From contig CAZPEP010000044.1 in the NCBI GenBank assembly GCA_964585685.1, positions 5,458-69,457 on the forward strand: a DNA stretch of 64,000 nucleotides, read 5' to 3'. Shown here in pieces: positions 38,313-54,989 of this stretch. The position numbers and the translations under genes were made by a program. This DNA is from an uncultured Eubacteriales bacterium. GTDB taxonomy: Bacteria > Acidobacteriota > Aminicenantia > Aminicenantales > Saccharicenantaceae. Under the pieces are notes generated by a model that made no database searches, was not told the DNA's origin, and worked only from the letters and a program-made list of their open reading frames with translations. Numbering within the stretch: position 1 is the first letter of the stretch; each line of letters starts with the position of its first letter.

Positions 38313-38810
38313 TCAGGCGGACACGTCTTTCTCTCGGACGGTTTTGTCCTTCGTCCGGGATGGCTTCGGCTTGATCTTCTGGGATAGGCCCTCGATGACA
38401 GCATCGGAGTCGGGGAGATCCTCTTCGATATCCTCCTCGTCGTGGAGGAGCTGCATGACCGAAGCGACGAACTTATCCGGGTCGACAGGCTTTTCAAAAT
38501 AGTCGGCGGCGCCGAAGGACGACAGGGCTTCATGCTTGTACTGGGGCCCCCTATAAAGCCCTGTGACGATGATCACCGGAACGCGCCCCCCCGACTCCTG
38601 GGAAATTTTCTTGGTCAGGTCGAAGCCGTGGATCTTGGGGAGGATGGCTTCCAAGACGACGAGGTCGGGCTTCTCGGACTTGAACTTATCGTAGGCCGCC
38701 TGCCCGTCCGCGGCCTTGATGATCTGGACCTTCTGCGTTTTCAGAAGCTTGACCATCGCCTCGAGGCTCACGCTGTCGTAATCGACGATGAGAACTTTTT
38801 TCCCGATCAT
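38313..38810 (-). CDS. Stand-alone receiver (REC) domain protein with Glu at the phospho-acceptor position
   Basis: MIGKKVLIVDYD ... KPDLVVLE(54)AILP ... VIIVTG ... FEKP. The canonical Asp of the LVVLD motif is Glu. Real start at MIGKK (about 38810). Confidence 0.7.
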   Translation of the reverse strand: MIGKKVLIVDYDSVSLEAMVKLLKTQKVQIIKAADGQAAYDKFKSEKPDLVVLEAILPKIHGFDLTKKISQESGGRVPVIIVTGLYRGPQYKHEALSSFGAADYFEKPVDPDKFVASVMQLLHDEEDIEEDLPDSDAVIEGLSQKIKPKPSRTKDKTVREKDVSA

Positions 38811-38963: not shown

Positions 38964-40517
38964 ATGCACCAGGCTTCGCAAACGGGAGCGTATATTGAAG
39001 AGATCTATGGGAAGCTGCTCGGCCGCAAGCCCGATAAAGAAGGTCTGGCCTACTACACCGGCAGGCTGGATCGGGGCGAGCTGACCCTGCCGGAATTCGT
39101 ACGCCAACTGAAAAATTCAACGGAGTACTGGCTGCGCCGTTTCCCCGGGGATATCCCACGACGAACCCTGGAAAATACAGTACTGAACGACCGCGAGACC
39201 CGGGAAAAAAGAACCGTCCTACAGTCCCGGCCCTATATCTTTAACATCGACTTGATCGGGATCTGCAATATGATCCCGCCCTGCAGCATGTGTTACAATT
39301 GGAAAAACGGCGTGGGGCCGCGTCATCATCGCGGGCTGAAGATCAAAGAGATCAAGCGTTTCGGTGAGCACCTGGAGTTGGCCCACGAGGTGATCAACTG
39401 CGGCATCGGCGAGCCCCTTCTCAACCGCGAGTTGATCCCCATCCTGCAGCTTTTCTATAATTGGGGCAAACCCTTCGGCTTTAACACCAACGGCCTCGCC
39501 CTCAGCCCAGCCATGACCGAGCGTATGGTCCCGTATTTTGAGATTCTGACCATCCTCTTCTCCCTGGACGCCGCCACGGGGGAAACTTACGCTAAGGTCA
39601 GGGGCCGCTTTTTCGACCGCGTGGTGAAGAACATCGCCTATTATAGCGCCAGAAGGCGAGAAGTGGCGCCTGATGGGCTCGCCTCTAAGACCGGAATCGT
39701 TTTCATGCCCATGCGCTGTAACCGCCACGAGACGGCCGACTTTATCCGTTTAGGGGCTCGCCTGGGTGTCGACGTTGTAGAGCTCCGGGCTCTGAACCAG
39801 ATCAATGAAAACTGGGTCGTCCGTCGCGGCGACTTCACCTTTAACTACCAACAGGAGATTCTCACCCCGGCCGAACTCGAAGAGATCAGACAGGAGGCGG
39901 CGGAAGTCGCCGTCTCTGAAGGAGTTCGCCTGGATTGCCAGTATCAGGTATCCCCGGAGAGCACCTTTTTCTTTTTTATCCCGCCCCAATACCGGGATCT
40001 GGGCATCCGCTGCATCCTGCCCTGGCGTTTCATCCTGCCCTATCAGAACGGCAATACTGTCCCATGCTGCTTCATCTCTGACGATCTCGGCGACTGGCGC
40101 AAAACCGGCCTAGAAAAACTGTGGAACGGCCCGTTCATGCAGAAGCTGCGGGGCCAGATGGCCACGGGGAACCTGCCCGGTTTGTGCCGCCGTTTCCCCT
40201 CCTGCCCGGTGGTACAGGCCACGCTGTCCGAGGAAAAGCGCCTCCATTCCGGATCCGTTAGCCCGCCGGTCATTCCCCCGGCGATGGATATCTCCGCAAT
40301 GCAGCCGGCCTTGCGGATGAGGGCGTCGCAGAAGCAAACCTTTATGAAACATGCCGTCCATGCGTTGAGGAAACGCTTCAATTTGGAATTGAACCACAGC
40401 CTGGGCGAGCTGTTCGCACGCCAGGAGAAGATCAATCGCGACCTAGCCGAGGAGGTCGAACGCCTGAAGGCCGAGGTAGCGGAAGTGCGCCGGGAGAAGG
40501 ATAAACAGCAGGGCTGA
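38964..40517 (+). CDS. DUF4214 - radical SAM - SPASM-like domain protein with C-terminal coiled-coil module
   Basis: N-terminal DUF4214 signature (LLGRKPDKEGLAYYTGRLDRGELTLPEFVRQLKNSTEY). Cys cluster CNMIPPCSMC (CX5CX2C). C-terminal Cys-rich SPASM/twitch-like region (VPCCF ... CRRFPSCP). About 50-aa coiled-coil tail. Confidence 0.65.
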   Translation: MHQASQTGAYIEEIYGKLLGRKPDKEGLAYYTGRLDRGELTLPEFVRQLKNSTEYWLRRFPGDIPRRTLENTVLNDRETREKRTVLQSRPYIFNIDLIGICNMIPPCSMCYNWKNGVGPRHHRGLKIKEIKRFGEHLELAHEVINCGIGEPLLNRELIPILQLFYNWGKPFGFNTNGLALSPAMTERMVPYFEILTILFSLDAATGETYAKVRGRFFDRVVKNIAYYSARRREVAPDGLASKTGIVFMPMRCNRHETADFIRLGARLGVDVVELRALNQINENWVVRRGDFTFNYQQEILTPAELEEIRQEAAEVAVSEGVRLDCQYQVSPESTFFFFIPPQYRDLGIRCILPWRFILPYQNGNTVPCCFISDDLGDWRKTGLEKLWNGPFMQKLRGQMATGNLPGLCRRFPSCPVVQATLSEEKRLHSGSVSPPVIPPAMDISAMQPALRMRASQKQTFMKHAVHALRKRFNLELNHSLGELFARQEKINRDLAEEVERLKAEVAEVRREKDKQQG

Positions 40518-40556
40518 GCGATTGACTTTCCACGGGGCCTCTCATACAATCAGGCC

Positions 40557-40853
40557 ATGGAACGCCCGGAAATGCTTGCCCGCATTGCCGCGATCAAAGC
40601 CGAGGTCGACGCGGCCAACCCCGACATCATCCGCCGCCTGATCACCGGGCACCGCGTCTTCGTTCAGACATCGCACCGGGCCTCCCTTCCAGCCAGGCTG
40701 ATCAACAGCATCCGGCGGAAACTGCTCTTCGAGGTGGAGCGGGGGCTGGAGCCCGCGTTCGAGCGGCAGCGGGAGATCAACCTGCGCCTGCTCAAGGAGA
40801 TCGAGGCCCTTAAAGTGGCGCTGGAGCAAAAGGGGCATGGCGCCTGCGGCTGA
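40557..40853 (+). CDS. Small coiled-coil protein (98 aa) carrying the recurrent RQ-x2-IN ... EIE-x-LK module
   Basis: Same strand and operon context as flanking genes. C-terminal motif matches the tail of the preceding rSAM enzyme and the 43121..43648 protein. Confidence 0.45.
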   Translation: MERPEMLARIAAIKAEVDAANPDIIRRLITGHRVFVQTSHRASLPARLINSIRRKLLFEVERGLEPAFERQREINLRLLKEIEALKVALEQKGHGACG

Positions 40854-41925
40854 AGCTCGGGCCGAAGCCGGCCGCTCTCTGACCATCGCCGTCTGTGCGC
40901 CTCAGGTGCCTTTCGTCAGCGGCGGAGCCGAGGAGCACGTGGCCTCCCTGTGCCGGGAGTTGCGCGTCCGGGGTCACCGGGTGGAGCTGATCACCCTCCC
41001 TTACAAATGGTATCCCCGGGCCCAGTTATGGCGCAGCATGAAGATGTGGGAAATGGCCGACCTGAGCGAAGCGAACGGTCTCAAGATCGACCTGGTCATC
41101 GCCACCAAGTTTCCGTCCTATTTCGTTCACCACAGCCGCCAGGTGCTGTGGCTAATCCATCAATACCGTCAACTCTACGATCTCTACGGCACCCCGTATT
41201 CGGAATACACTCCGAACCGGTGGCGCGACCGTCGGCTCCACCGCCGCTTCGTGGCCCGCGATACAGCCGCGCTTGCCCGTTTTGCCAAACGTTTCACCAA
41301 TTCGGACAACACCCGGCAACGGATGTACAGATACAACGGGTTGGAGGCCGAGACCCTCTACCACCCCCCCAAGCTGGCCGATCGCCTTCAATGTCTGGAA
41401 TACGGCGATTACATTCTTTCGGTGGGCCGTTTGGACCAGCTCAAGAGGACCGAAGGCCTGATCCATGCTTTGGCGCGGACGAAGTCTGCGGTCCGGGCCG
41501 TGATCGCCGGAACCGGGCCCGAAGAGCACGGCCTCAAGCAGCTGACCCGTGACCTGGGCCTTACGGCGCGGGTGGAGTTTCCCGGATATGTCGATGACGA
41601 TCGTCTGATCGACCTTTATGGCCGCTGCCTGGCCGTTTTTTTCGCTCCGCTCGACGAGGATTACGGGTACGTCACCTTGGAGGCCTTCCTAGCCGCCAAA
41701 CCCGTTCTGACCTGCAGCGACTCCGGCGGGTCCTTGGAATTCGTGGCTCACGAACGGAACGGGTTCGTTCTGCCGCCCGGAGATTGGGCCGCGGCGGCTT
41801 CCTGCATCGACCGCCTCTACCGCGACCGTGAGCTCTGCCGGAGCCTGGGCGCAACCGGCAGGGCAGCGGTGAGCGCCCTCACGTGGGATCATGTGCTTAC
41901 CCGATTGCTGGAGGGAGCGGTATGA
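40837..41925 (+). CDS. Glycosyltransferase family 4
   Basis: GT-B fold. C-terminal EX7E-type region (TLEAFLAAKPVLTCSDSGGSLEFVAHERNGFV). Confidence 0.8.
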   Translation: MAPAAEARAEAGRSLTIAVCAPQVPFVSGGAEEHVASLCRELRVRGHRVELITLPYKWYPRAQLWRSMKMWEMADLSEANGLKIDLVIATKFPSYFVHHSRQVLWLIHQYRQLYDLYGTPYSEYTPNRWRDRRLHRRFVARDTAALARFAKRFTNSDNTRQRMYRYNGLEAETLYHPPKLADRLQCLEYGDYILSVGRLDQLKRTEGLIHALARTKSAVRAVIAGTGPEEHGLKQLTRDLGLTARVEFPGYVDDDRLIDLYGRCLAVFFAPLDEDYGYVTLEAFLAAKPVLTCSDSGGSLEFVAHERNGFVLPPGDWAAAASCIDRLYRDRELCRSLGATGRAAVSALTWDHVLTRLLEGAV

Positions 41926-43124
41926 AGATCGCCTGGTTCAGCCCGCTTTCCCCCGTACCGAGCGGTATCGCCGATTATAGCGAAGAGCTGCTGCCGAGCC
42001 TCGCCCGGCATGCGAGCATCGATATCTATATCGACCCCTCCTACACCCCGAGCAATGCCGGGATCGCCCGTTCTTTCTCCATCCGGCCGTTCGACCCGAG
42101 GGCTTTCAAGGCCGAGGATTATGACCGCATCGTGTATCATATGGGCAACGACTTCTTGGCCCACCGCTATATCCATGAAGCCATGCTGCGCTTTCCCGGG
42201 GTGGTAGTCCTCCACGATCTCGTGCTGATGGGCTTCTACGCCGCCCGCCAGGGTGCCGGCAGGGACTTCCCCGGCTTCATCCGCTTCCTGCAGCAGTTGT
42301 ACCCGGATAAAGCGGCTTGGATAGGAGAGCAGTGTGCCGGTCGCTACCCCTTTCCGCTCTGGGAAAGCAGGATGGCGCTGCAACTGCCGATGAACGAAGA
42401 GGTCTGCCGCCTGGCCGCGGGCGTCATCGCCCATTCCCATTACGTCATGGCACGGCTCTGGCTGCAGGACGGAAAACCCGCCGCCGTCATCCCCCACCAT
42501 GGCCACCCCACCCATCCCTTCGACCGGGAGGCGATTCGGGCCGGGCTCGGCGTGAAGCCAGAACAGATCTTCCTCGTCTCCACCGGATATGTCACCCGCA
42601 ATAAGCGCTATGGCCTGGTGTTGGACGTATTGAAGGAGCTGGGCCGGCCCGACCTGAGCTACCTGATCGTGGGCCGCGACGACGACGGCATTTTGCCGCG
42701 GATGCTGAACACCGGCCGGCCTGACGTGCAAACCCGGGGATTCGCGCCCTTGGCGGAGTTGGAACAGATGATCGCCGCCTGCGATATCGGCATAAACCTG
42801 CGCAATCCCACCATGGGCGAAAGCTCCGGATCTCTCCTGCGCATGATGAGCTACGGCCGGCCGGTCATCGTGAGCGACAGTGGTTCCTACAGCGAGATTC
42901 CCGATCATTGTGCCGTCAAGATCGATACCGGGATCGATGAAAAGGAAATGCTCAAAGATTTCATCGTTGCCCTGGCCGATGGCCCCGACTTGCGGGCCGC
43001 CCTGGGCCGCGAGGCGGCGCGCTATGCCGGCGAAACATGCGGCATCGACCGTTGTGCCGACATGTACGCAGCGTTTCTGCGCGACATGCAACCCGTGCGC
43101 CCGGCGCGGAGGGAACCTCGATGA
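41922..43124 (+). CDS. Glycosyltransferase family 4
   Basis: Start at MKIAWFS (41922; the ORF-track start is over-extended). GESSGSLLRMMSYGRPVIVSD donor-binding motif. Confidence 0.75.
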   Translation: MKIAWFSPLSPVPSGIADYSEELLPSLARHASIDIYIDPSYTPSNAGIARSFSIRPFDPRAFKAEDYDRIVYHMGNDFLAHRYIHEAMLRFPGVVVLHDLVLMGFYAARQGAGRDFPGFIRFLQQLYPDKAAWIGEQCAGRYPFPLWESRMALQLPMNEEVCRLAAGVIAHSHYVMARLWLQDGKPAAVIPHHGHPTHPFDREAIRAGLGVKPEQIFLVSTGYVTRNKRYGLVLDVLKELGRPDLSYLIVGRDDDGILPRMLNTGRPDVQTRGFAPLAELEQMIAACDIGINLRNPTMGESSGSLLRMMSYGRPVIVSDSGSYSEIPDHCAVKIDTGIDEKEMLKDFIVALADGPDLRAALGREAARYAGETCGIDRCADMYAAFLRDMQPVRPARREPR

Positions 43125-43648
43125 GCGAGATGAATCAGAACAAAACGGACATCAGCGGGAGGCTGCAGGGACTGCGCCGGGAATTCGCCCTCCGGGCGGA
43201 AGGGGCCGGAACCATCGAAGCCATTGCCGGCGGCCCGGTGGACCGCGATCTTCCGCCGGATTACTGGGGCTTTACCGATGAAGACTTGGAAAACGAACTT
43301 TGGAACCGCCTCCTCGAGTTGGACCGGGCCCCGCTTGACCCGGCTCAGGCCATGGATATCCCGCCCGGCAGCCTTTCACCGGCCAAGCACGGTCTATCGG
43401 GAAAGATCAAAGGCGGATTCAAGAACCTTCTGCTGCAGCTGGCCAAGCCCCTGGTGCGTATTACGCTGGCGAGGCAAGGCAATCTGAACCGCCAACTCGA
43501 ACACCTCCAATTCATCCAGTTCCTGGCGGTCAAGCAACTGCGTCAGCGCCTGCAGCGGCTGGAACGTGAGAATCGCGATCTGCGCTTCCGCTTGGCCGAA
43601 CTGGAAATCGAGAATGCCCCCGATGGAGAGACCTCCGGCCATGAGTGA
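43121..43648 (+). CDS. Coiled-coil protein (about 175 aa) with C-terminal recurrent module
   Basis: Start MSEMNQ overlaps the preceding GT4 stop as ATGA. C-terminal LARQGNLNRQLEHLQ ... RLERENRDLRFRLAELE coiled coil. Confidence 0.5.
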   Translation: MSEMNQNKTDISGRLQGLRREFALRAEGAGTIEAIAGGPVDRDLPPDYWGFTDEDLENELWNRLLELDRAPLDPAQAMDIPPGSLSPAKHGLSGKIKGGFKNLLLQLAKPLVRITLARQGNLNRQLEHLQFIQFLAVKQLRQRLQRLERENRDLRFRLAELEIENAPDGETSGHE

Positions 43649-45032
43649 GCGTTCCCCGGCCGAACGGCCGGCCCGACATGCTCCGGCAGGGCGGGTTTGG
43701 GAAAAGGCATTTCTGAAGCGGATCGCCGAACAGGGACAGGCGGGAACCTGGGAATACGCGCGGGCCATCACCGAGTGCCTGCAAACTTCGGTGGCGAGCT
43801 CCGACCTGTTGGACCGGATCGGCAACGCCATTGCCGATCGCGCAGGTCTTCGCACCGCCATCAATACCGTCGACCTCTGCCAGCTGCTGCTCGGACTGAG
43901 AAAGCCGCGCATCGCCATCTACGACCACACCTGGCAGTTCATCGGCGGGGCGCAGAAATACGGCGCCACGCTGGCCGAAGCCTTGCAGGATATGGGCGAG
44001 ATCACCTTGATCGGAAATCGCCCCTTCTCCACCGAGCAGCTGTCCGCCTGGTACCGGCTGGATCTCAAGGATTGCTCCAGCCGCCTGATAGCCCTCCCCT
44101 TTTTCGAGGAAAAGGGCGGTGATTATATCGATCCCGCCGAGATCGTCTCGCGCGCCATGGCCAATCCGTTTCATGCCGTCAGCCGGGCGACTCTGGGCTA
44201 CGACCTCTTCATCAACAATGGCATGTTGGAAATGGTCTTGCCCCTGGCCACCCGCTCTATCTTCATCACTCACTTCCCGGAACGGCGGGCGCGCAGCTAT
44301 TTCTACGTGGACCGCTACGACCGCGTTGTGTGCAACAGCCGCTATACCGCCGGCTGGATCGAAAAGCGTTGGGGGCTCGAACCCCATGTTCAAATCTATC
44401 CCCCCGTCGACATGCCGGGGCCGCGCCCTGAAAACAAGGAGCCGATCATCCTGTCGGCAGCGCGCTTCGATCCCGGGGGGAACAAGCAACAGCTCGACAT
44501 GATCCGCGTTCTTCAAGCGCTCATCCGCCGTCACGCCCGGGCCAGCCGCGGCTGGCGCTTGATCCTTGCCGGCGGCAGCCATGGCGATAACCCATATCTC
44601 CATCAGGTACAACAGTTCCTGACGGACAACCCTGGTCTGCCGGTGGAGCTGCGGGTGAACATCTCGGCGGCCGAGCTTCAGGAATTGTATCGCCGGGCCT
44701 CCCTGTTCTGGCATTTCTGCGGTCTGGGACAAAGCGACCCGGCCCTTGTGGAGCATTTCGGCATGACCGTTGCCGAGGCTATGCAGAGCGGCTGCATTCC
44801 CCTGGTCTTCGATGGCGGCGGCATGCGCGAGATCGTCCGATCCGCAGAGAATGGCTATCTTTTCTCAAGCCTCGTCGAATTGGTCGGCGTCACCGCCAGG
44901 CTGTTCGACAGGCCCGCGTTGCGTGCCAACCTGGCCGAGGCGGCCTGGAACGCCGGACGGGCTTTCGCTAAAGAGATTTTCGCCGGACGCGTGCGGGCCC
45001 TGGTCCGGGAGCTGCTGGCCCCGGCGCCATAA
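43641..45032 (+). CDS. Glycosyltransferase family 4
   Basis: Start MSERSP overlaps the previous stop as ATGA. EHFGMTVAEAMQSGCIPLVFDGGG motif. Confidence 0.75.
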   Translation: MSERSPAERPARHAPAGRVWEKAFLKRIAEQGQAGTWEYARAITECLQTSVASSDLLDRIGNAIADRAGLRTAINTVDLCQLLLGLRKPRIAIYDHTWQFIGGAQKYGATLAEALQDMGEITLIGNRPFSTEQLSAWYRLDLKDCSSRLIALPFFEEKGGDYIDPAEIVSRAMANPFHAVSRATLGYDLFINNGMLEMVLPLATRSIFITHFPERRARSYFYVDRYDRVVCNSRYTAGWIEKRWGLEPHVQIYPPVDMPGPRPENKEPIILSAARFDPGGNKQQLDMIRVLQALIRRHARASRGWRLILAGGSHGDNPYLHQVQQFLTDNPGLPVELRVNISAAELQELYRRASLFWHFCGLGQSDPALVEHFGMTVAEAMQSGCIPLVFDGGGMREIVRSAENGYLFSSLVELVGVTARLFDRPALRANLAEAAWNAGRAFAKEIFAGRVRALVRELLAPAP

Positions 45033-52025: not shown

Positions 52026-53003
52026 ATGACGAAGCTCGAGTACTACCGGAGGCTGTGGGCCATCTTCCGGGCCTACAGGAAGAGGGAAACGATCCTCCCC
52101 TATCTCCCCATCCGGCTCTGGATCGAACCGACGAGTTTCTGCAACCTCAAGTGCGTCATGTGCCCGAACAAGGACCTTGACCGGAGGGACAAGGGCTATA
52201 TGCCGCTCGAGCTCTTCCGGAAGATCGTCGACGAGGCCGCCGGGTTCGTCCACGAGGCCAACCTCATCCACCGAGGCGAATCCCTCCTTCACCCGGATTT
52301 CTTCGAGATGGTCCGGGCCGCGAGCGCGGCGGGGATCGTGACCAAGCTCCACACGAACGCCACACTCCTTGACGCAGACAAGGCCCATCGGCTTATCGAA
52401 GCGGGGCTCCATCAGCTGACCTTCTCCTTCGACGGCTACGACAAGGCCACCTACGAGCGCATCCGGGTCAACGGCACGTTCGAGAAGACCATCGAGAACA
52501 TCCGCAGCTTCCACCGGGTGCGGAAAGAGCTCGGGGCGAAGAGGCCGCGCACGATCCTGGAGCTCATCGATTTCCCCGATATCTACCGGAACGTCGGCCG
52601 GCAGGAAAAGCGGGCATTCCTCGAAAGATTCAAGGAATTCCCGCCGGACAGGATCCGGATCAAGGACATGCATAACTGGGCGGGCGATATCGGCGGACCG
52701 GGAAAGGGCCGGACGTACGCACCGTGCACGTTCCCCTGGGCGTCCCTCATCGTCTTCTGGGACGGCCGGGTCCTCCCGTGCACCCAGGATTTTTTCGGGG
52801 ACCTCGCGGTCGGCGACGCCGGCAAGTCGTCCTTGGCCGACATTTGGAACGGCGAGCGCATGGTCGAGATCCGAAAAAGGGCCGCCGAAGGGGATATCAA
52901 GGACCTCGCCCCGTGCTCGGCCTGCGACCGGCCCTGGCGGGAAACGTTCCTCGGGGTGCCCAGGGAATACATCTGGAAGCTCCTCCTGCGCCGGATGCCC
53001 TGA
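52026..53003 (+). CDS. Radical SAM / SPASM-domain protein
   Basis: Canonical CNLKCVMCP (CX3CX2C). C-terminal auxiliary-cluster cysteines (CTFPW ... LPCTQD ... APCSACDRP). Confidence 0.8.
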   Translation: MTKLEYYRRLWAIFRAYRKRETILPYLPIRLWIEPTSFCNLKCVMCPNKDLDRRDKGYMPLELFRKIVDEAAGFVHEANLIHRGESLLHPDFFEMVRAASAAGIVTKLHTNATLLDADKAHRLIEAGLHQLTFSFDGYDKATYERIRVNGTFEKTIENIRSFHRVRKELGAKRPRTILELIDFPDIYRNVGRQEKRAFLERFKEFPPDRIRIKDMHNWAGDIGGPGKGRTYAPCTFPWASLIVFWDGRVLPCTQDFFGDLAVGDAGKSSLADIWNGERMVEIRKRAAEGDIKDLAPCSACDRPWRETFLGVPREYIWKLLLRRMP

Positions 53004-53039: not shown

Positions 53040-54989
53040 GTGATATATTCGGTCCGGAAAATGAAGGTTTCGAACCTCGCCTCGGTGTTCCTGGTCCTTT
53101 CGTCGAGCCTTATCCCGGCCTATCCGAGCGACAGGGCATGGTTCGCCATAAGCAGGCCAACCTCATCGCTCCCCCGCCTCAAGGAGGACCGGGCCGGAGC
53201 CCTGCGCGCCCTTTGGCTCGAAGGCGGGGAAGGCGGGAGCTCGATCGTACTCGGACGCGTCGGCGGTGACTCCGTCGAGAGGGACGGCATCGTGGCGGCA
53301 ACGAACGGGACCGCTCTTTCCCCCGATTTCGATTTCGACGCCCTCAACAGGCCCTGGGTCGCCTGGATAGACAATGCCGGGGAAACGCCCCGGGTCTGCG
53401 TCCGGGAGCCCGTCACGAACCGGACATGGAGGATCAGCCCTCCGTCCCTCCTCTCCGCCTCCAGGGTTAAGGTCCTGGCGGGAGGCCCGTCGGAGGTTTG
53501 GGTCTTCTGGACGGGGCACGACCTCGGCCGGGACGAAACGTTCTTCCGCCGCTTCAACGGAGCGGCGTGGTCGCCAACCGCGCGGCTCCACGCGGACAGC
53601 GCTTCTCCCCGGATCCTGATGGATGCGGTGTTGAGCCCGGACGGGCGCCCATGGGTCGTCTGGTCCCGTTATGACGGGGAGGATTACGAGGTCTACGGCT
53701 CCCGGTGGGAAGGGGCCGGATGGTCAGGCGAGGAAACGCTCACGGACGACACGGGTTCCGACGCCTGGCCCGGCATCGTTTGCCTCCGAGGCTCTCTCCC
53801 TGCCGTCGTCTGGGCCAACGTCCACGGACGGGCGAACTCCCTGCGCGCCCGAGTATTCGCCGCAGGCTCATGGGGGCCGACGCTCGAACTCCTCGCCACG
53901 GGAGAAGAGATCGCCGAACCCCGCGTCTCGACCCGCGAAGGAAGGCTCGTCATCGCCTGGAGGTCCGACGGGGAGATCCGCTCGATGACCCTGTCCTATG
54001 ACCAGCTGAGGACGCGGAGAAACCCCGCCCCGGAGGCGGGCGACCCTGCCCTCGCGGAGGTCGGGCGGGACGAGAACACGTACACGGCGTTCGGCGACGA
54101 GATCACGTACGGCTGGATCGACGGCGGCCCCGCCGTTGAGCTCGGCTACGTTCCGAGGCTCGAAACCCGCCTTACGGAGCGTTTCGGCTTTTCTGCGGTC
54201 GCCAACGAGGGTGTCCCCGGCGAGACCACGGTCAACGGTTTGGGCCGGATGAACGACGTCCTCGCGAGCAACCCTGGCCGCTACCTCCTTCTGATGGAGG
54301 GGACCAACGACGTCGTCACGCCGGACCTTTCGCTTGACGCGAGCGCCTTCAACCTCGAGCAGATGGTCCTGAAGTGCGTCGACGCCGGCGTCCTTCCCGT
54401 CCTCTCGACCATCATTCCGAGGAACGACTCCTATTGGAGCGACGCGCTCTTCCGGAAACGGATCGCCGGCCTCAACGACGAGGTCGCCCGGATCGCCCTG
54501 AACCTAAAACTCCCGTTCGTCGACATGTTCAACACCTTCCTGGATTTCCCCGAGGCCGACGGGGGCTGGCCCTCTCTGCTTTCCGACTACGCCCACCCCA
54601 ACGAGCGGGGATACGAGGTCATCGCCCGAACCTGGGCCGAGGCGATAGGGAGGATCCCTTTCCCCCCTTCCCCGATCACGGTCCGCCGTTCGACGGAGCG
54701 GTCCCTCCTCGCCAACCGGAAGGTCAATTACCTGACCTGGCGCCACAGCCAGAAGATCCGAAACCCGTTCCTGTTCCGAAGCTACAGGATCTTCAAGAAG
54801 GACCTGGCGGAGCCCATAGCTGAATACCGACTGATCGCCGTCCTCCCTTACTCGCCGTTCCACAACCCGCAGAAGTACAACGACCTCGATATCCTCGAGA
54901 CCCACCGCTACCGCTACGCCGTCTCCCTAGTCGCCGTCGACGGCATCGAGGGCCCCCTGTCCGACCCCGCGGACGAATTCGAACTGTGA
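53040..54989 (+). CDS. Secreted multidomain protein: W-rich tandem repeats / SGNH-fold hydrolase domain with GDE in place of GDS / C-terminal Fn3-like domain
   Basis: Signal peptide. Five spaced [VW]xW motifs. SGNH blocks AFGDEITYG (block I, Glu354 at 54099..54101), MEGTNDV (block III), DYAHPNERG (block V). Confidence 0.55.
   Translation: MIYSVRKMKVSNLASVFLVLSSSLIPAYPSDRAWFAISRPTSSLPRLKEDRAGALRALWLEGGEGGSSIVLGRVGGDSVERDGIVAATNGTALSPDFDFDALNRPWVAWIDNAGETPRVCVREPVTNRTWRISPPSLLSASRVKVLAGGPSEVWVFWTGHDLGRDETFFRRFNGAAWSPTARLHADSASPRILMDAVLSPDGRPWVVWSRYDGEDYEVYGSRWEGAGWSGEETLTDDTGSDAWPGIVCLRGSLPAVVWANVHGRANSLRARVFAAGSWGPTLELLATGEEIAEPRVSTREGRLVIAWRSDGEIRSMTLSYDQLRTRRNPAPEAGDPALAEVGRDENTYTAFGDEITYGWIDGGPAVELGYVPRLETRLTERFGFSAVANEGVPGETTVNGLGRMNDVLASNPGRYLLLMEGTNDVVTPDLSLDASAFNLEQMVLKCVDAGVLPVLSTIIPRNDSYWSDALFRKRIAGLNDEVARIALNLKLPFVDMFNTFLDFPEADGGWPSLLSDYAHPNERGYEVIARTWAEAIGRIPFPPSPITVRRSTERSLLANRKVNYLTWRHSQKIRNPFLFRSYRIFKKDLAEPIAEYRLIAVLPYSPFHNPQKYNDLDILETHRYRYAVSLVAVDGIEGPLSDPADEFEL

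Follow-up and report, generated by a model that had tools for sequence, protein, structure and literature searches.

Radical SAM enzymes known to work with glycosyltransferases on envelope glycoconjugates are very few, and none of these has an expanded loop around its SAM-binding cluster. Among characterised radical SAM enzymes, a CX5CX2C motif has been described only for HcgA/HmdB of [Fe]-hydrogenase cofactor biosynthesis, where this spacing supports both the binding of a [4Fe-4S] cluster and the formation of 5'-deoxyadenosine, and QueE tolerates loop lengths up to CX14. RadicalSAM.org gives CX5CX2C only for Megacluster-4-10 and not for the SPASM/twitch Megacluster-1-1. For the helical domain DUF4214 (PF13946), the protein Psh (RTX-DUF4214) has been reported in a 2026 preprint to bind the LPS O-antigen.

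The window analysed here, the whole stretch of 64,000 nucleotides, contains a gene for a 517-residue protein that brings these elements together, in the order DUF4214, radical SAM core, twitch domain, linker and coiled-coil tail. The initial annotation had described three parts, all of which are found; it had missed a fourth, made up of the linker and a 58-residue helix. It had also not recognised the combination of domains, which is indeed uncharacterised but not unique, since both it and the CX5CX2C motif recur in public metagenomes. A literature search found nothing on the family, nor any work joining radical SAM/SPASM with glycosyltransferase and polysaccharide. The features of the gene are as follows.

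38964..40517, + strand: whole open reading frame, 517 amino acids (ORF list, JGI gene call, identical protein, AF2 model)
38964..39203, + strand: N-terminal helical domain, residues 1-80 (PF13946, PDB sequence matches, AF2 helices)
38982-39125, + strand: Pfam DUF4214 match, residues 7-54 (27.8 bits)
39231..39953, + strand: radical SAM partial TIM-barrel core, approximately residues 90-330
39264..39293, + strand: SAM-cluster loop C101-NMIPP-C107-SM-C110, CX5CX2C (verified sequence CNMIPPCSMC; alignments)
39399..39416, + strand: C146 followed by a GGE-type SAM-binding motif, C-G-I-G149-E150-P151 (conservation in the alignment)
39483..39569, + strand: further SAM-site motifs N174-T-N176-G177 and S200-L-D202 (invariance; alignment to MoaA)
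40011..40208, + strand: twitch-type domain, residues 350-415, C350-x12-G363-x4-C368-C369 ... C408-x5-C414 (PF13186, N_Twi_rSAM, cysteine conservation)
40251..40337, + strand: disordered linker, residues 430-458 (pLDDT <50 at residues 439-457; poorly conserved and of variable length)
40338..40514, + strand: C-terminal long helix, residues 459-517, copy one of a 'SHR...RQxEINxxL' coiled-coil module (AF2 helix 459-516; BLASTP)

The same gene was called by JGI on two metagenome contigs, a 100% identical protein exists in NCBI/JGI (P0001), and a Shine-Dalgarno-like GAGGGA lies upstream of the ATG. The AF2 model has a pLDDT of 90.9 and a pTM of 0.80. As a check of the sequence gave neither a signal peptide nor a TM segment in the 517 residues, the protein is predicted to be soluble and cytoplasmic. 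There are 11 cysteines, at positions 101, 107, 110, 146, 252, 325, 350, 368, 369, 408 and 414.

The initial annotation had read the radical SAM triad as CX5CX2C, and this holds: the sequence CNMIPPCSMC was verified and its cysteines are homologous to those of canonical triads. No CX3CX2C, the canonical motif of the superfamily, exists among the 11 cysteines, so that a canonical triad does not lie elsewhere; variant spacings are, however, accepted in the superfamily, and the core has the partial TIM-barrel of the radical SAM fold. In an alignment of 113 sequences, comprising 83 CX5CX2C members and 30 canonical relatives, C101, C107 and C110 are invariant, and in the 83 full-length members, drawn from the close family and a sister clade, they are without exception kept as CN[MV]xPPCx[MY]C. 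Because the motif is kept across both groups, the spacing is neither an artefact of alignment nor a chance occurrence. The triad aligns with a two-residue gap to CNLN--CPIC of GDGT-MAS (7tol) and CNLS--CSFC of AbmM (8wm2), and profile and pairwise alignments also place CNL--KCVMC of a paralogue within the window against it. CX5CX2C is the form found in 100 of the best 144 representative clusters, CX6-CX8 forms occur too, and a crude NJ tree suggests approximately four changes of state in the loop insertion, which may thus not have a single origin.

The residues expected around the SAM are equally well conserved, with G149, E150, P151, N176, S200, D202 and R213 invariant across the 113 homologues; the GEP, N176 and S200/D202 motifs align to GGEP, TTNG and SLDA of MoaA (1tv7). 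C146, next to the GGE motif, is present in all 83 CX5CX2C members and in none of the 30 canonical relatives of the same alignment, and could take part in catalysis. A strict coupling of this cysteine with the loop insertion fails in the wider clade, where LHGxGEP or EDSFGEP is found with CX5, and is also broken by P0232, in which the cysteine is present with CX3 spacing. The initial annotation had proposed PF04055 as a check on the assignment. On the 517-residue protein this profile gave no match at E<=1, and so misses the gathering score of 29.5 bits, whereas other clade members reach 30-41 bits and precomputed matches exist for homologues that are 83% identical. It is very probable that the expanded-loop protein has the anatomy of an active radical SAM enzyme.

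The cysteine-rich SPASM/twitch-like region that had been noted after the core is borne out by PF13186, which passes its gathering score (28.3 bits against a cut-off of 21.5, residues 350-409), by a local NCBIfam match to N_Twi_rSAM (residues 350-409) and by conserved cysteines. TIGR04085, also put forward as a check, was not among the NCBIfam matches. Five auxiliary cysteines are conserved, in the pattern C-x17-CC-x38-C-x5-C, and across the whole clade there are four or five but never seven, a count that rules out a full two-cluster SPASM. The CX9-15GX4C signature is retained (C350-x12-G363-x4-C368), while in the remainder of the seven-cysteine SPASM pattern, CX9-15GX4C ... CX2CX5CX3C ... C, the CX2CX5CX3C is reduced to CX5C. 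At the level of sequence this is the arrangement of a twitch domain, the hairpin being followed by the later pair C408-x5-C414, and because only five cysteines are conserved we describe the domain as twitch-like with one predicted cluster. A search with the twitch cysteines gave no sequence match among solved structures.

At the N-terminus the DUF4214 signature claimed initially is clear, with PF13946 scoring 27.8 bits against a cut-off of 23.2 over residues 7-54, and the domain is present in most close homologues. The region had been put at about 110 residues; in the AF2 model it is nearer 80, folded as five helices with a pLDDT above 94. The secreted and S-layer contexts usual for DUF4214 do not fit this protein, which has no signal for export or membrane insertion. 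The only sequence matches in the PDB for this part are phycobilisome linker chains, and there is a weak Pfam match to the PBS-linker. Pfam gave no match to a PqqD/RRE domain.

The gene is the first of a six-gene module (38964-45032) in the order radical SAM gene, o98, GT4a, GT4b, o175 and GT4c.

40557..40853, + strand: o98, small helical protein, module copy two (synteny; long helix 44-95)
40837..41925, + strand: GT4a glycosyltransferase (Glycos_transf_1 / Glyco_trans_1_4)
41922..43124, + strand: GT4b, divergent GT4-like protein (weak Glycos_transf_1 matches; conserved in close-family loci)
43121..43648, + strand: o175, small protein with module copy three as its C-terminal half (alignment A3; positional homologue)
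43641..45032, + strand: GT4c glycosyltransferase (Glycos_transf_1; conserved in close-family loci)

The radical SAM gene, o98 and the three GT4 genes are syntenic in all nine of the distinct close-family loci with enough flanking sequence, whether the radical SAM gene is co-directional or divergent, and o175 is conserved too. In nine distinct loci an orthologue of GT4a, 50-84% identical, adjoins the radical SAM gene. The close-family proteins with three GT4 neighbours come from uncultured Aminicenantes. All NCBIfam scores of the glycosyltransferases are below their cut-offs, which prevents finer naming. Elsewhere in the clade the two activities are joined outright: P0278 is a single-ORF GT4::rSAM-SPASM fusion, P0328 one with two GT4s, and L005 holds a frame-split GT4::rSAM fusion inside a Wzm/Wzt glycan cluster, all with CX5CX2C. 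Further fusions are to a class-III aminotransferase and an aldo/keto reductase (P0233, P0248). BtrN works with a partner aminotransferase, and by analogy these fusions fit a BtrN-like chemistry through a keto intermediate. No priming phosphoglycosyltransferase, flippase or polymerase is conserved in the six-gene module; the acceptor might be lipid, protein or small molecule and need not be a polysaccharide of the classical type. In other Acidobacteriota, the sister clade with CX5CX2C has no glycosyltransferase neighbours, and therefore the longer loop is not in itself a mark of glycan chemistry. Apparent clusters of conserved neighbours in that clade proved to be antisense ORFs within the gene itself.

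The tail of the radical SAM protein matches o98 in BLASTP (E 3e-7) and o175 aligns with the module, having a positional homologue in L003 (E 6e-14); by these comparisons the tail helix is homologous to o98 and o175 of the same operon. Tail and o98 are each predicted as one long helix after a disordered stretch. o98 overlaps the start of GT4a by 17 nt and adjoins it in all close-family loci; an o98-like module is fused to the radical SAM protein in L004/L010 and is free-standing in loci of the L003 type. Pfam gave no match for o98, o175 or the tail module. A profile search found 91 clusters of o98 homologues, proteins of 93-123 residues; as all of these were small, unfused proteins from the one lineage, the idea of a widespread adaptor was dropped.

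We favour, with a probability of about 0.6, the explanation that the protein is active as a radical SAM enzyme and modifies what the neighbouring GT4s make, the glycan substrate being suggested by the GT4 context in a clade that has no characterised member. The reported binding of LPS O-antigen by a DUF4214 protein is in line with such a substrate. The SAM-binding [4Fe-4S] cluster would be ligated by C101, C107 and C110, whose loop exceeds the canonical length by two residues, and one auxiliary [4Fe-4S] cluster would be bound via C350, C368 (or C369), C408 and C414. On reduction the SAM cluster would cleave SAM to give the 5'-deoxyadenosyl radical, which would abstract hydrogen at a carbon atom in a sugar of the glycoconjugate that the three GT4s assemble, and the substrate radical would be resolved with the help of the auxiliary cluster. 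The likeliest outcome may be a keto-sugar formed by oxidation, as in the twitch dehydrogenase BtrN, with epimerisation as the alternative, though putting a name to the reaction by such analogies is speculative. The helical modules of the tail, o98 and o175 may serve to tether the GT4s to the enzyme. Only tentatively would we extend this to the GT4-linked branch of the large expanded-loop (CX5 to CX8) twitch clade as a glycan-tailoring machine, coupled to glycosyltransferases by fusion or by a coiled-coil module.

The alternative with the next best claim, though a distinctly weaker one, is that the enzyme modifies a RiPP-like peptide or small protein (o98, o175 or an unseen precursor) that is then glycosylated by the GT4s. 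Its top structural neighbours SuiB, SkfB, ChlB, TigE, PqqE and anSME act on peptides or proteins, the operon has two conserved small ORFs, GT4a has a weak match to TIGR04157, and pairs of radical SAM/SPASM and glycosyltransferase are known from predicted Bacteroidales peptide systems; a literature search lists PMC10352776 in this connection. It also counts against the favoured explanation that the structural neighbours include peptide maturases (SuiB, SkfB, ChlB, TigE, PqqE) in equal number to sugar or nucleotide enzymes (BlsE, DesII, MoaA, viperin). A RiPP maturase with an RRE was rejected as the N-terminus is the helical DUF4214 instead of an RRE/PqqD-type domain, and the small ORFs do not resemble leader-plus-core precursors. 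The body of o98 is conserved with variation confined to the last ~15 residues, and its C-terminal GACG, considered as a RiPP core, is not conserved. Moreover o98 and the tail are each modelled as one long helix, the module is in some genomes fused to the enzyme's own C-terminus, which would be unusual for a substrate, and the fusion of GT4 directly to the radical SAM enzyme suggests that both act on one glycosyl substrate.

It is improbable that the target is the hydrocarbon portion, acyl or alkyl, of a glycolipid with a GT4-built head group, for instance in a C-C coupling as in GDGT-MAS/Tes. In favour of this, glycolipids are a common product of GT4 enzymes, membrane-spanning lipids are a known feature of Acidobacteriota, and genes for polysaccharide export and polymerisation are missing from the module. 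Of the solved structures, the archaeal tetraether synthase GDGT-MAS gives the best sequence-profile match (7tol, E 2.3e-5). Less probable again is a maturase of a cofactor or enzyme unrelated to the glycosyltransferases, such as an anSME-like activator of a sulfatase or a metallo-cofactor maturase: NCBIfam scores are far under the curated cut-offs of 380-400 and the gene fusions are to GT4. An anSME in particular was discounted, there being no match to an anSME NCBIfam model, only five auxiliary cysteines, and a sulfatase gene in just one of the loci compared (L003), whereas the GT4 set is conserved across them. That the protein is a degenerate homologue whose altered loop holds no SAM-cleaving cluster could be argued from the non-canonical spacing and from PF04055 falling below the reporting threshold, but it is scarcely credible when the three cysteines and all motifs for SAM contact show no variation throughout a deep clade, and when HcgA is catalytically active with this spacing and QueE tolerates much longer loops.

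The locus offers a compact six-gene entry point, its link to GT4 resting on conserved synteny and independent gene fusions, into a clade of at least 100 clusters at 50% identity without a characterised member. Solving the reaction could add a new tailoring chemistry for the surface glycans or glycolipids of abundant but uncultured bacteria, the Aminicenantes and other Acidobacteriota, could explain how insertions of 2-5 residues are accommodated in the SAM-cluster loop of the SPASM/twitch subgroup, and could give DUF4214 its first intracellular role. A glycan-tailoring machine coupled to glycosyltransferases would, if true, be of a kind not described before. Current understanding is not overturned, as variant cysteine spacings and twitch domains are already established.

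Compared with known systems, the protein shares with PF13946 proteins such as Psh a helical domain resembling the phycobilisome linker repeat; in contrast to them the domain is here predicted to be intracellular and is fused to a predicted Fe-S enzyme. HcgA has the same cluster spacing but belongs to another subgroup, related to HydE/HydG/BioB, while the close structural neighbours here are all SPASM/twitch, and the HcgA model is absent from the NCBIfam matches of our protein. Given the different subgroup and the restriction of CX5CX2C to Megacluster-4-10 in RadicalSAM.org, the motif arose independently of that in HcgA. A place in the HcgA/HmdB family, which would call for kinship with the HydE/HydG/BioB-like subgroup and an hcg gene neighbourhood, was rejected. 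No NCBIfam equivalog model matches the protein. Prokaryotic viperin (NF038283) was rejected, with 34.6 bits against a cut-off of 180 and a twitch domain present here, and a defence-system reading was set aside, the PADLOC pVip match being weak (40.9 bits) and confined to the core.

The best structural neighbours of the AF2 model are SuiB, SkfB, BlsE, anSME, ChlB, TigE, MoaA and PqqE. Against SuiB, SkfB and anSME, the protein has an expanded cluster loop, five auxiliary cysteines rather than seven or eight, no recognisable precursor peptide, and the helical DUF4214 where SuiB-type peptide-modifying relatives have their substrate-recognition domain. BtrN and the twitch sugar enzymes (BlsE, SpeY, DesII-type) are 12-18% identical to it. 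They differ in having CX3CX2C rather than CX5CX2C in the loop and CX2C rather than CX5C as the last cysteine pair, and in lacking the conserved C146 and C369, the N-terminal DUF4214 and the C-terminal coiled-coil tail. Whereas BtrN and its kin belong to antibiotic pathways, the enzyme described here is set among GT4s in what is probably an envelope-glycan context.

The radical SAM protein under study, here called rSAM, is encoded by a real open reading frame of 517 residues (38964-40517, plus strand) with a ribosome-binding-like site, GAGGGA, upstream of its ATG. The identical gene was called by JGI on two metagenome contigs, and a protein 100% identical to it is present in both NCBI and JGI. 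The cluster loop, CNMIPPCSMC at nucleotides 39264-39293, has the spacing CX5CX2C. This spacing, proposed in the initial annotation, is borne out by the sequence, as a canonical CX3CX2C motif was sought among all 11 cysteines of the protein and none was found. In a pairwise alignment CNMIPPCSMC is placed against CNL--KCVMC of a canonical radical SAM/SPASM paralogue encoded in the same window (52026-53003). With a family profile, the loop falls against CNLN--CPIC of GDGT-MAS (7tol) and CNLS--CSFC of 8wm2, and the iGEP, NsNG and SlDa motifs of the family against the SAM-contact motifs of MoaA. Judged from these alignments, the expanded triad and the canonical one are homologous. Cys101, Cys107, Cys110, Gly149, Glu150, Pro151, Asn176, Ser200, Asp202 and Arg213 are invariant in 113 homologues. 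PF04055 gave no match to rSAM at E<=1 in the Pfam search, and all the NCBIfam radical SAM matches, over residues 92-275, were below threshold. Since even relatives of rSAM score just 30-41 bits with PF04055 (cut-off 29.5), the miss reflects a divergent core and is no argument against the fold. We consider rSAM to be an active radical SAM enzyme in which the CX5CX2C triad holds the SAM cluster, with one auxiliary cluster in addition (probability around 0.9).

The proposed cysteine-rich SPASM/twitch-like region is present. Residues 350-409 match SPASM in Pfam (28.3 bits, cut-off 21.5) and a twitch domain, the abridged form with one auxiliary cluster, in NCBIfam; the full seven-cysteine SPASM pattern is not present. 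The conserved cysteines are Cys350, Cys368, Cys369 (the second of a CC pair), Cys408 and Cys414. C350-x12-G363-x4-C368 fits the CX9-15GX4C signature, and the canonical CX2CX5CX3C is shortened to CX5C. Every clade member inspected has four or five cysteines here and never seven, in the pattern C-x17-C(C)-x~40-C-x2/5-C. By its cysteine pattern the auxiliary domain is twitch-like. The spacing presumably resembles that of the single auxiliary cluster of BtrN (C169/C187/C232/C235), which we take as a lead only. No solved relative turned up when the twitch segment was used as a sequence query.

The motif CN[MV]xPPCx[MY]C occurs in every full-length member of the close family (P0001-P0056) and of a sister group of ~600-residue proteins (P0057-P0088), and more distant relatives have the canonical loop. 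When 1.84 billion representatives were searched exhaustively, 6,959 matched at E<=1e-3, of which 1,145 reached E<=1e-10 and 75 reached E<=1e-30. Among the best 144 new representatives, CX5CX2C was found in 100 and CX3CX2C in 21, with CX6, CX7 or CX8 at the loop site in others. In a crude neighbour-joining tree the expanded state dominates a deep clade within which CX7 and CX8 are nested, with about four changes of loop state overall. Cys146 (39399-39401), three residues ahead of the GGE motif, is present in 83/83 sequences with the insertion and in 0/30 canonical relatives. In the wider clade it is replaced by histidine or aspartate in some CX5 members, and it is kept in most, not all, expanded-loop proteins. 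Cys146 and Cys369 (40068-40070) are conserved cysteines surplus to both predicted clusters; possible roles are as hydrogen-atom donor, extra ligand or in a redox function.

rSAM is the first gene of a same-strand run followed by o98, GT4a, GT4b, o175, GT4c, an ArnC-like GT2, a further GT4 (glycosyltransferase family 4) and an SDR epimerase. Farther downstream lie GT9, GT2, a KsgA-like gene, the second radical SAM gene, a GDSL-domain protein and FtsK. Features of this region are:

38313-38810, minus strand: single-domain response regulator, 165 residues, divergent from rSAM
40338-40514: rSAM tail, helical module of ~55 residues (SHR...RQxEINxxL)
40522-40550, plus strand: sigma-70-like promoter match, TTGACT-17-TACAAT, 10/12, consensus match only
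40557-40853: o98, helical module
43121-43648: o175, helical module in its C-terminal half
52026-53003, plus strand: second radical SAM/SPASM gene, canonical CNLKCVMC (PF04055 75.7 bits, SPASM 52.1 bits), with a four-cysteine twitch-like C-terminus
53040-54989, plus strand: 649-residue protein with C-terminal GDSL lipase/acylhydrolase domain, directly 3' of the second radical SAM gene

By tblastn, each of the nine distinct close-family loci that have sufficient flanking sequence carries the set rSAM, o98, GT4a, GT4b and GT4c, with rSAM co-directional in some and divergent in others. For o175, a homologue in the corresponding position is present even at the most divergent of these loci (E 6e-14). 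The nearest locus, L007, has 81% identity and full synteny. The response regulator keeps its position only there (88% identity), which places it outside the core module. The promoter match sits in the 39-nt gap between rSAM and o98, so the GT4 genes may also be transcribed independently of rSAM. In the complete Aminicenantes genome OY969586.1 (L003, 1056-5268) the module is flanked by a 779-residue sulfatase-family protein and another radical SAM gene (452 residues), an arrangement that the other loci do not share. A scan of species-representative genomes found the close family in MAGs only, mostly Candidatus Aminicenantes, with some bins labelled Eubacteriales or Clostridia. The sister clade occurs in Vicinamibacteria, Thermoanaerobaculia, Holophagales and a few other phyla, with none of the module partners and no conserved neighbour whatever.

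In the predicted model residues 439-457 of rSAM are disordered and residues 459-516 form a helix. This tail matches o98 (E 3e-7), and the operon holds three copies of the lineage-specific module. Aligned tails, o98 proteins and o175 C-terminal halves share IR(K/R)RLxxE...L.P.L..Q(K/R)EIN.R.LKEIE with invariant Gln and Asn. L003-type loci have a tailless rSAM and a separate o98 gene; at L004 and L010 it is the tail of rSAM itself that contains the best match to o98, with GT4a directly next. The module has no Pfam family, and a profile search found only 91 clusters of small free-standing proteins, mostly 93-123 residues, none with a Pfam domain. It is also fused to the C-terminus of some rSAM-family enzymes. 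The prediction for o98, whose body is conserved and whose C-terminus varies, is a long extended helix (pTM 0.36). The module may be a coiled-coil assembly element linking the enzyme to the GT4s.

Fusion partners in the wider CX5CX2C clade are various, and a so far unannotated domain, marked by FRW...D.R.L(A/G)V, recurs at either end:

P0278: GT4, radical SAM and SPASM in one ORF
P0328: two GT4s, radical SAM and SPASM
P0235: DUF4214, TPR and radical SAM
P0233: class-III aminotransferase and aldo/keto reductase fused to radical SAM
P0248: class-III aminotransferase fused to radical SAM
P0058, P0068 and L033 9608-11323 (sister clade): FRW-pattern domain, N-terminal ~170 residues
P0051, P0054-P0056 (close relatives): FRW-pattern domain, C-terminal ~150 residues

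The same catalytic core thus carries differing accessory domains (DUF4214, FRW-pattern domain, GT4, TPR, aminotransferase). A frame-split GT4::radical SAM gene adjoins P0053 within a Wzm/Wzt cluster that also holds GDSL and B12-radical SAM genes. In this locus, L005 (7400-10004), where a GDSL gene accompanies rSAM as one does the second radical SAM gene of the window, the twitch domain of the fusion is in another frame, with a stop after ...SASV and then MQYQPACRKPW...; either a frameshift introduced in sequencing or assembly, or a gene that is truly split, could explain this.

It is mainly because of the fusions and the synteny that we favour a glycosyl substrate for the GT4-linked branch, and on balance rSAM probably acts on the glycoconjugate that the neighbouring GT4s assemble. 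The fusions to aminotransferases and a reductase point to a keto intermediate; as the type of reaction we tentatively propose a dehydrogenation like that of BtrN, or an epimerisation. Among other substrates, a peptide or protein matured by rSAM seems unlikely and modification of a lipid or glycolipid tail more doubtful still, while maturation of an unrelated cofactor or enzyme is improbable. That rSAM is a degenerate homologue we regard as the least probable of all. The N-terminal DUF4214 was rightly recognised in the initial annotation (Pfam, residues 7-54, 27.8 bits, cut-off 23.2). The first 80 residues are modelled as a confident helical bundle related to phycobilisome linker repeats and, as rSAM has neither signal peptide nor transmembrane segment, the domain is intracellular in this protein. 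A 2026 preprint describes a secreted RTX-DUF4214 protein that binds LPS O-antigen, so the domain might plausibly bind a glycan or a partner in rSAM.

No literature on the rSAM family was found. The protein changes no established concept, and experimental follow-up is worthwhile. In RadicalSAM.org CX5CX2C is given for Megacluster-4-10 only and is absent for the SPASM/twitch megacluster. The one characterised enzyme that has this spacing, HcgA/HmdB, binds a [4Fe-4S] cluster and forms 5'-deoxyadenosine, so CX5CX2C is compatible with radical SAM chemistry. HcgA belongs to a different subgroup from rSAM.
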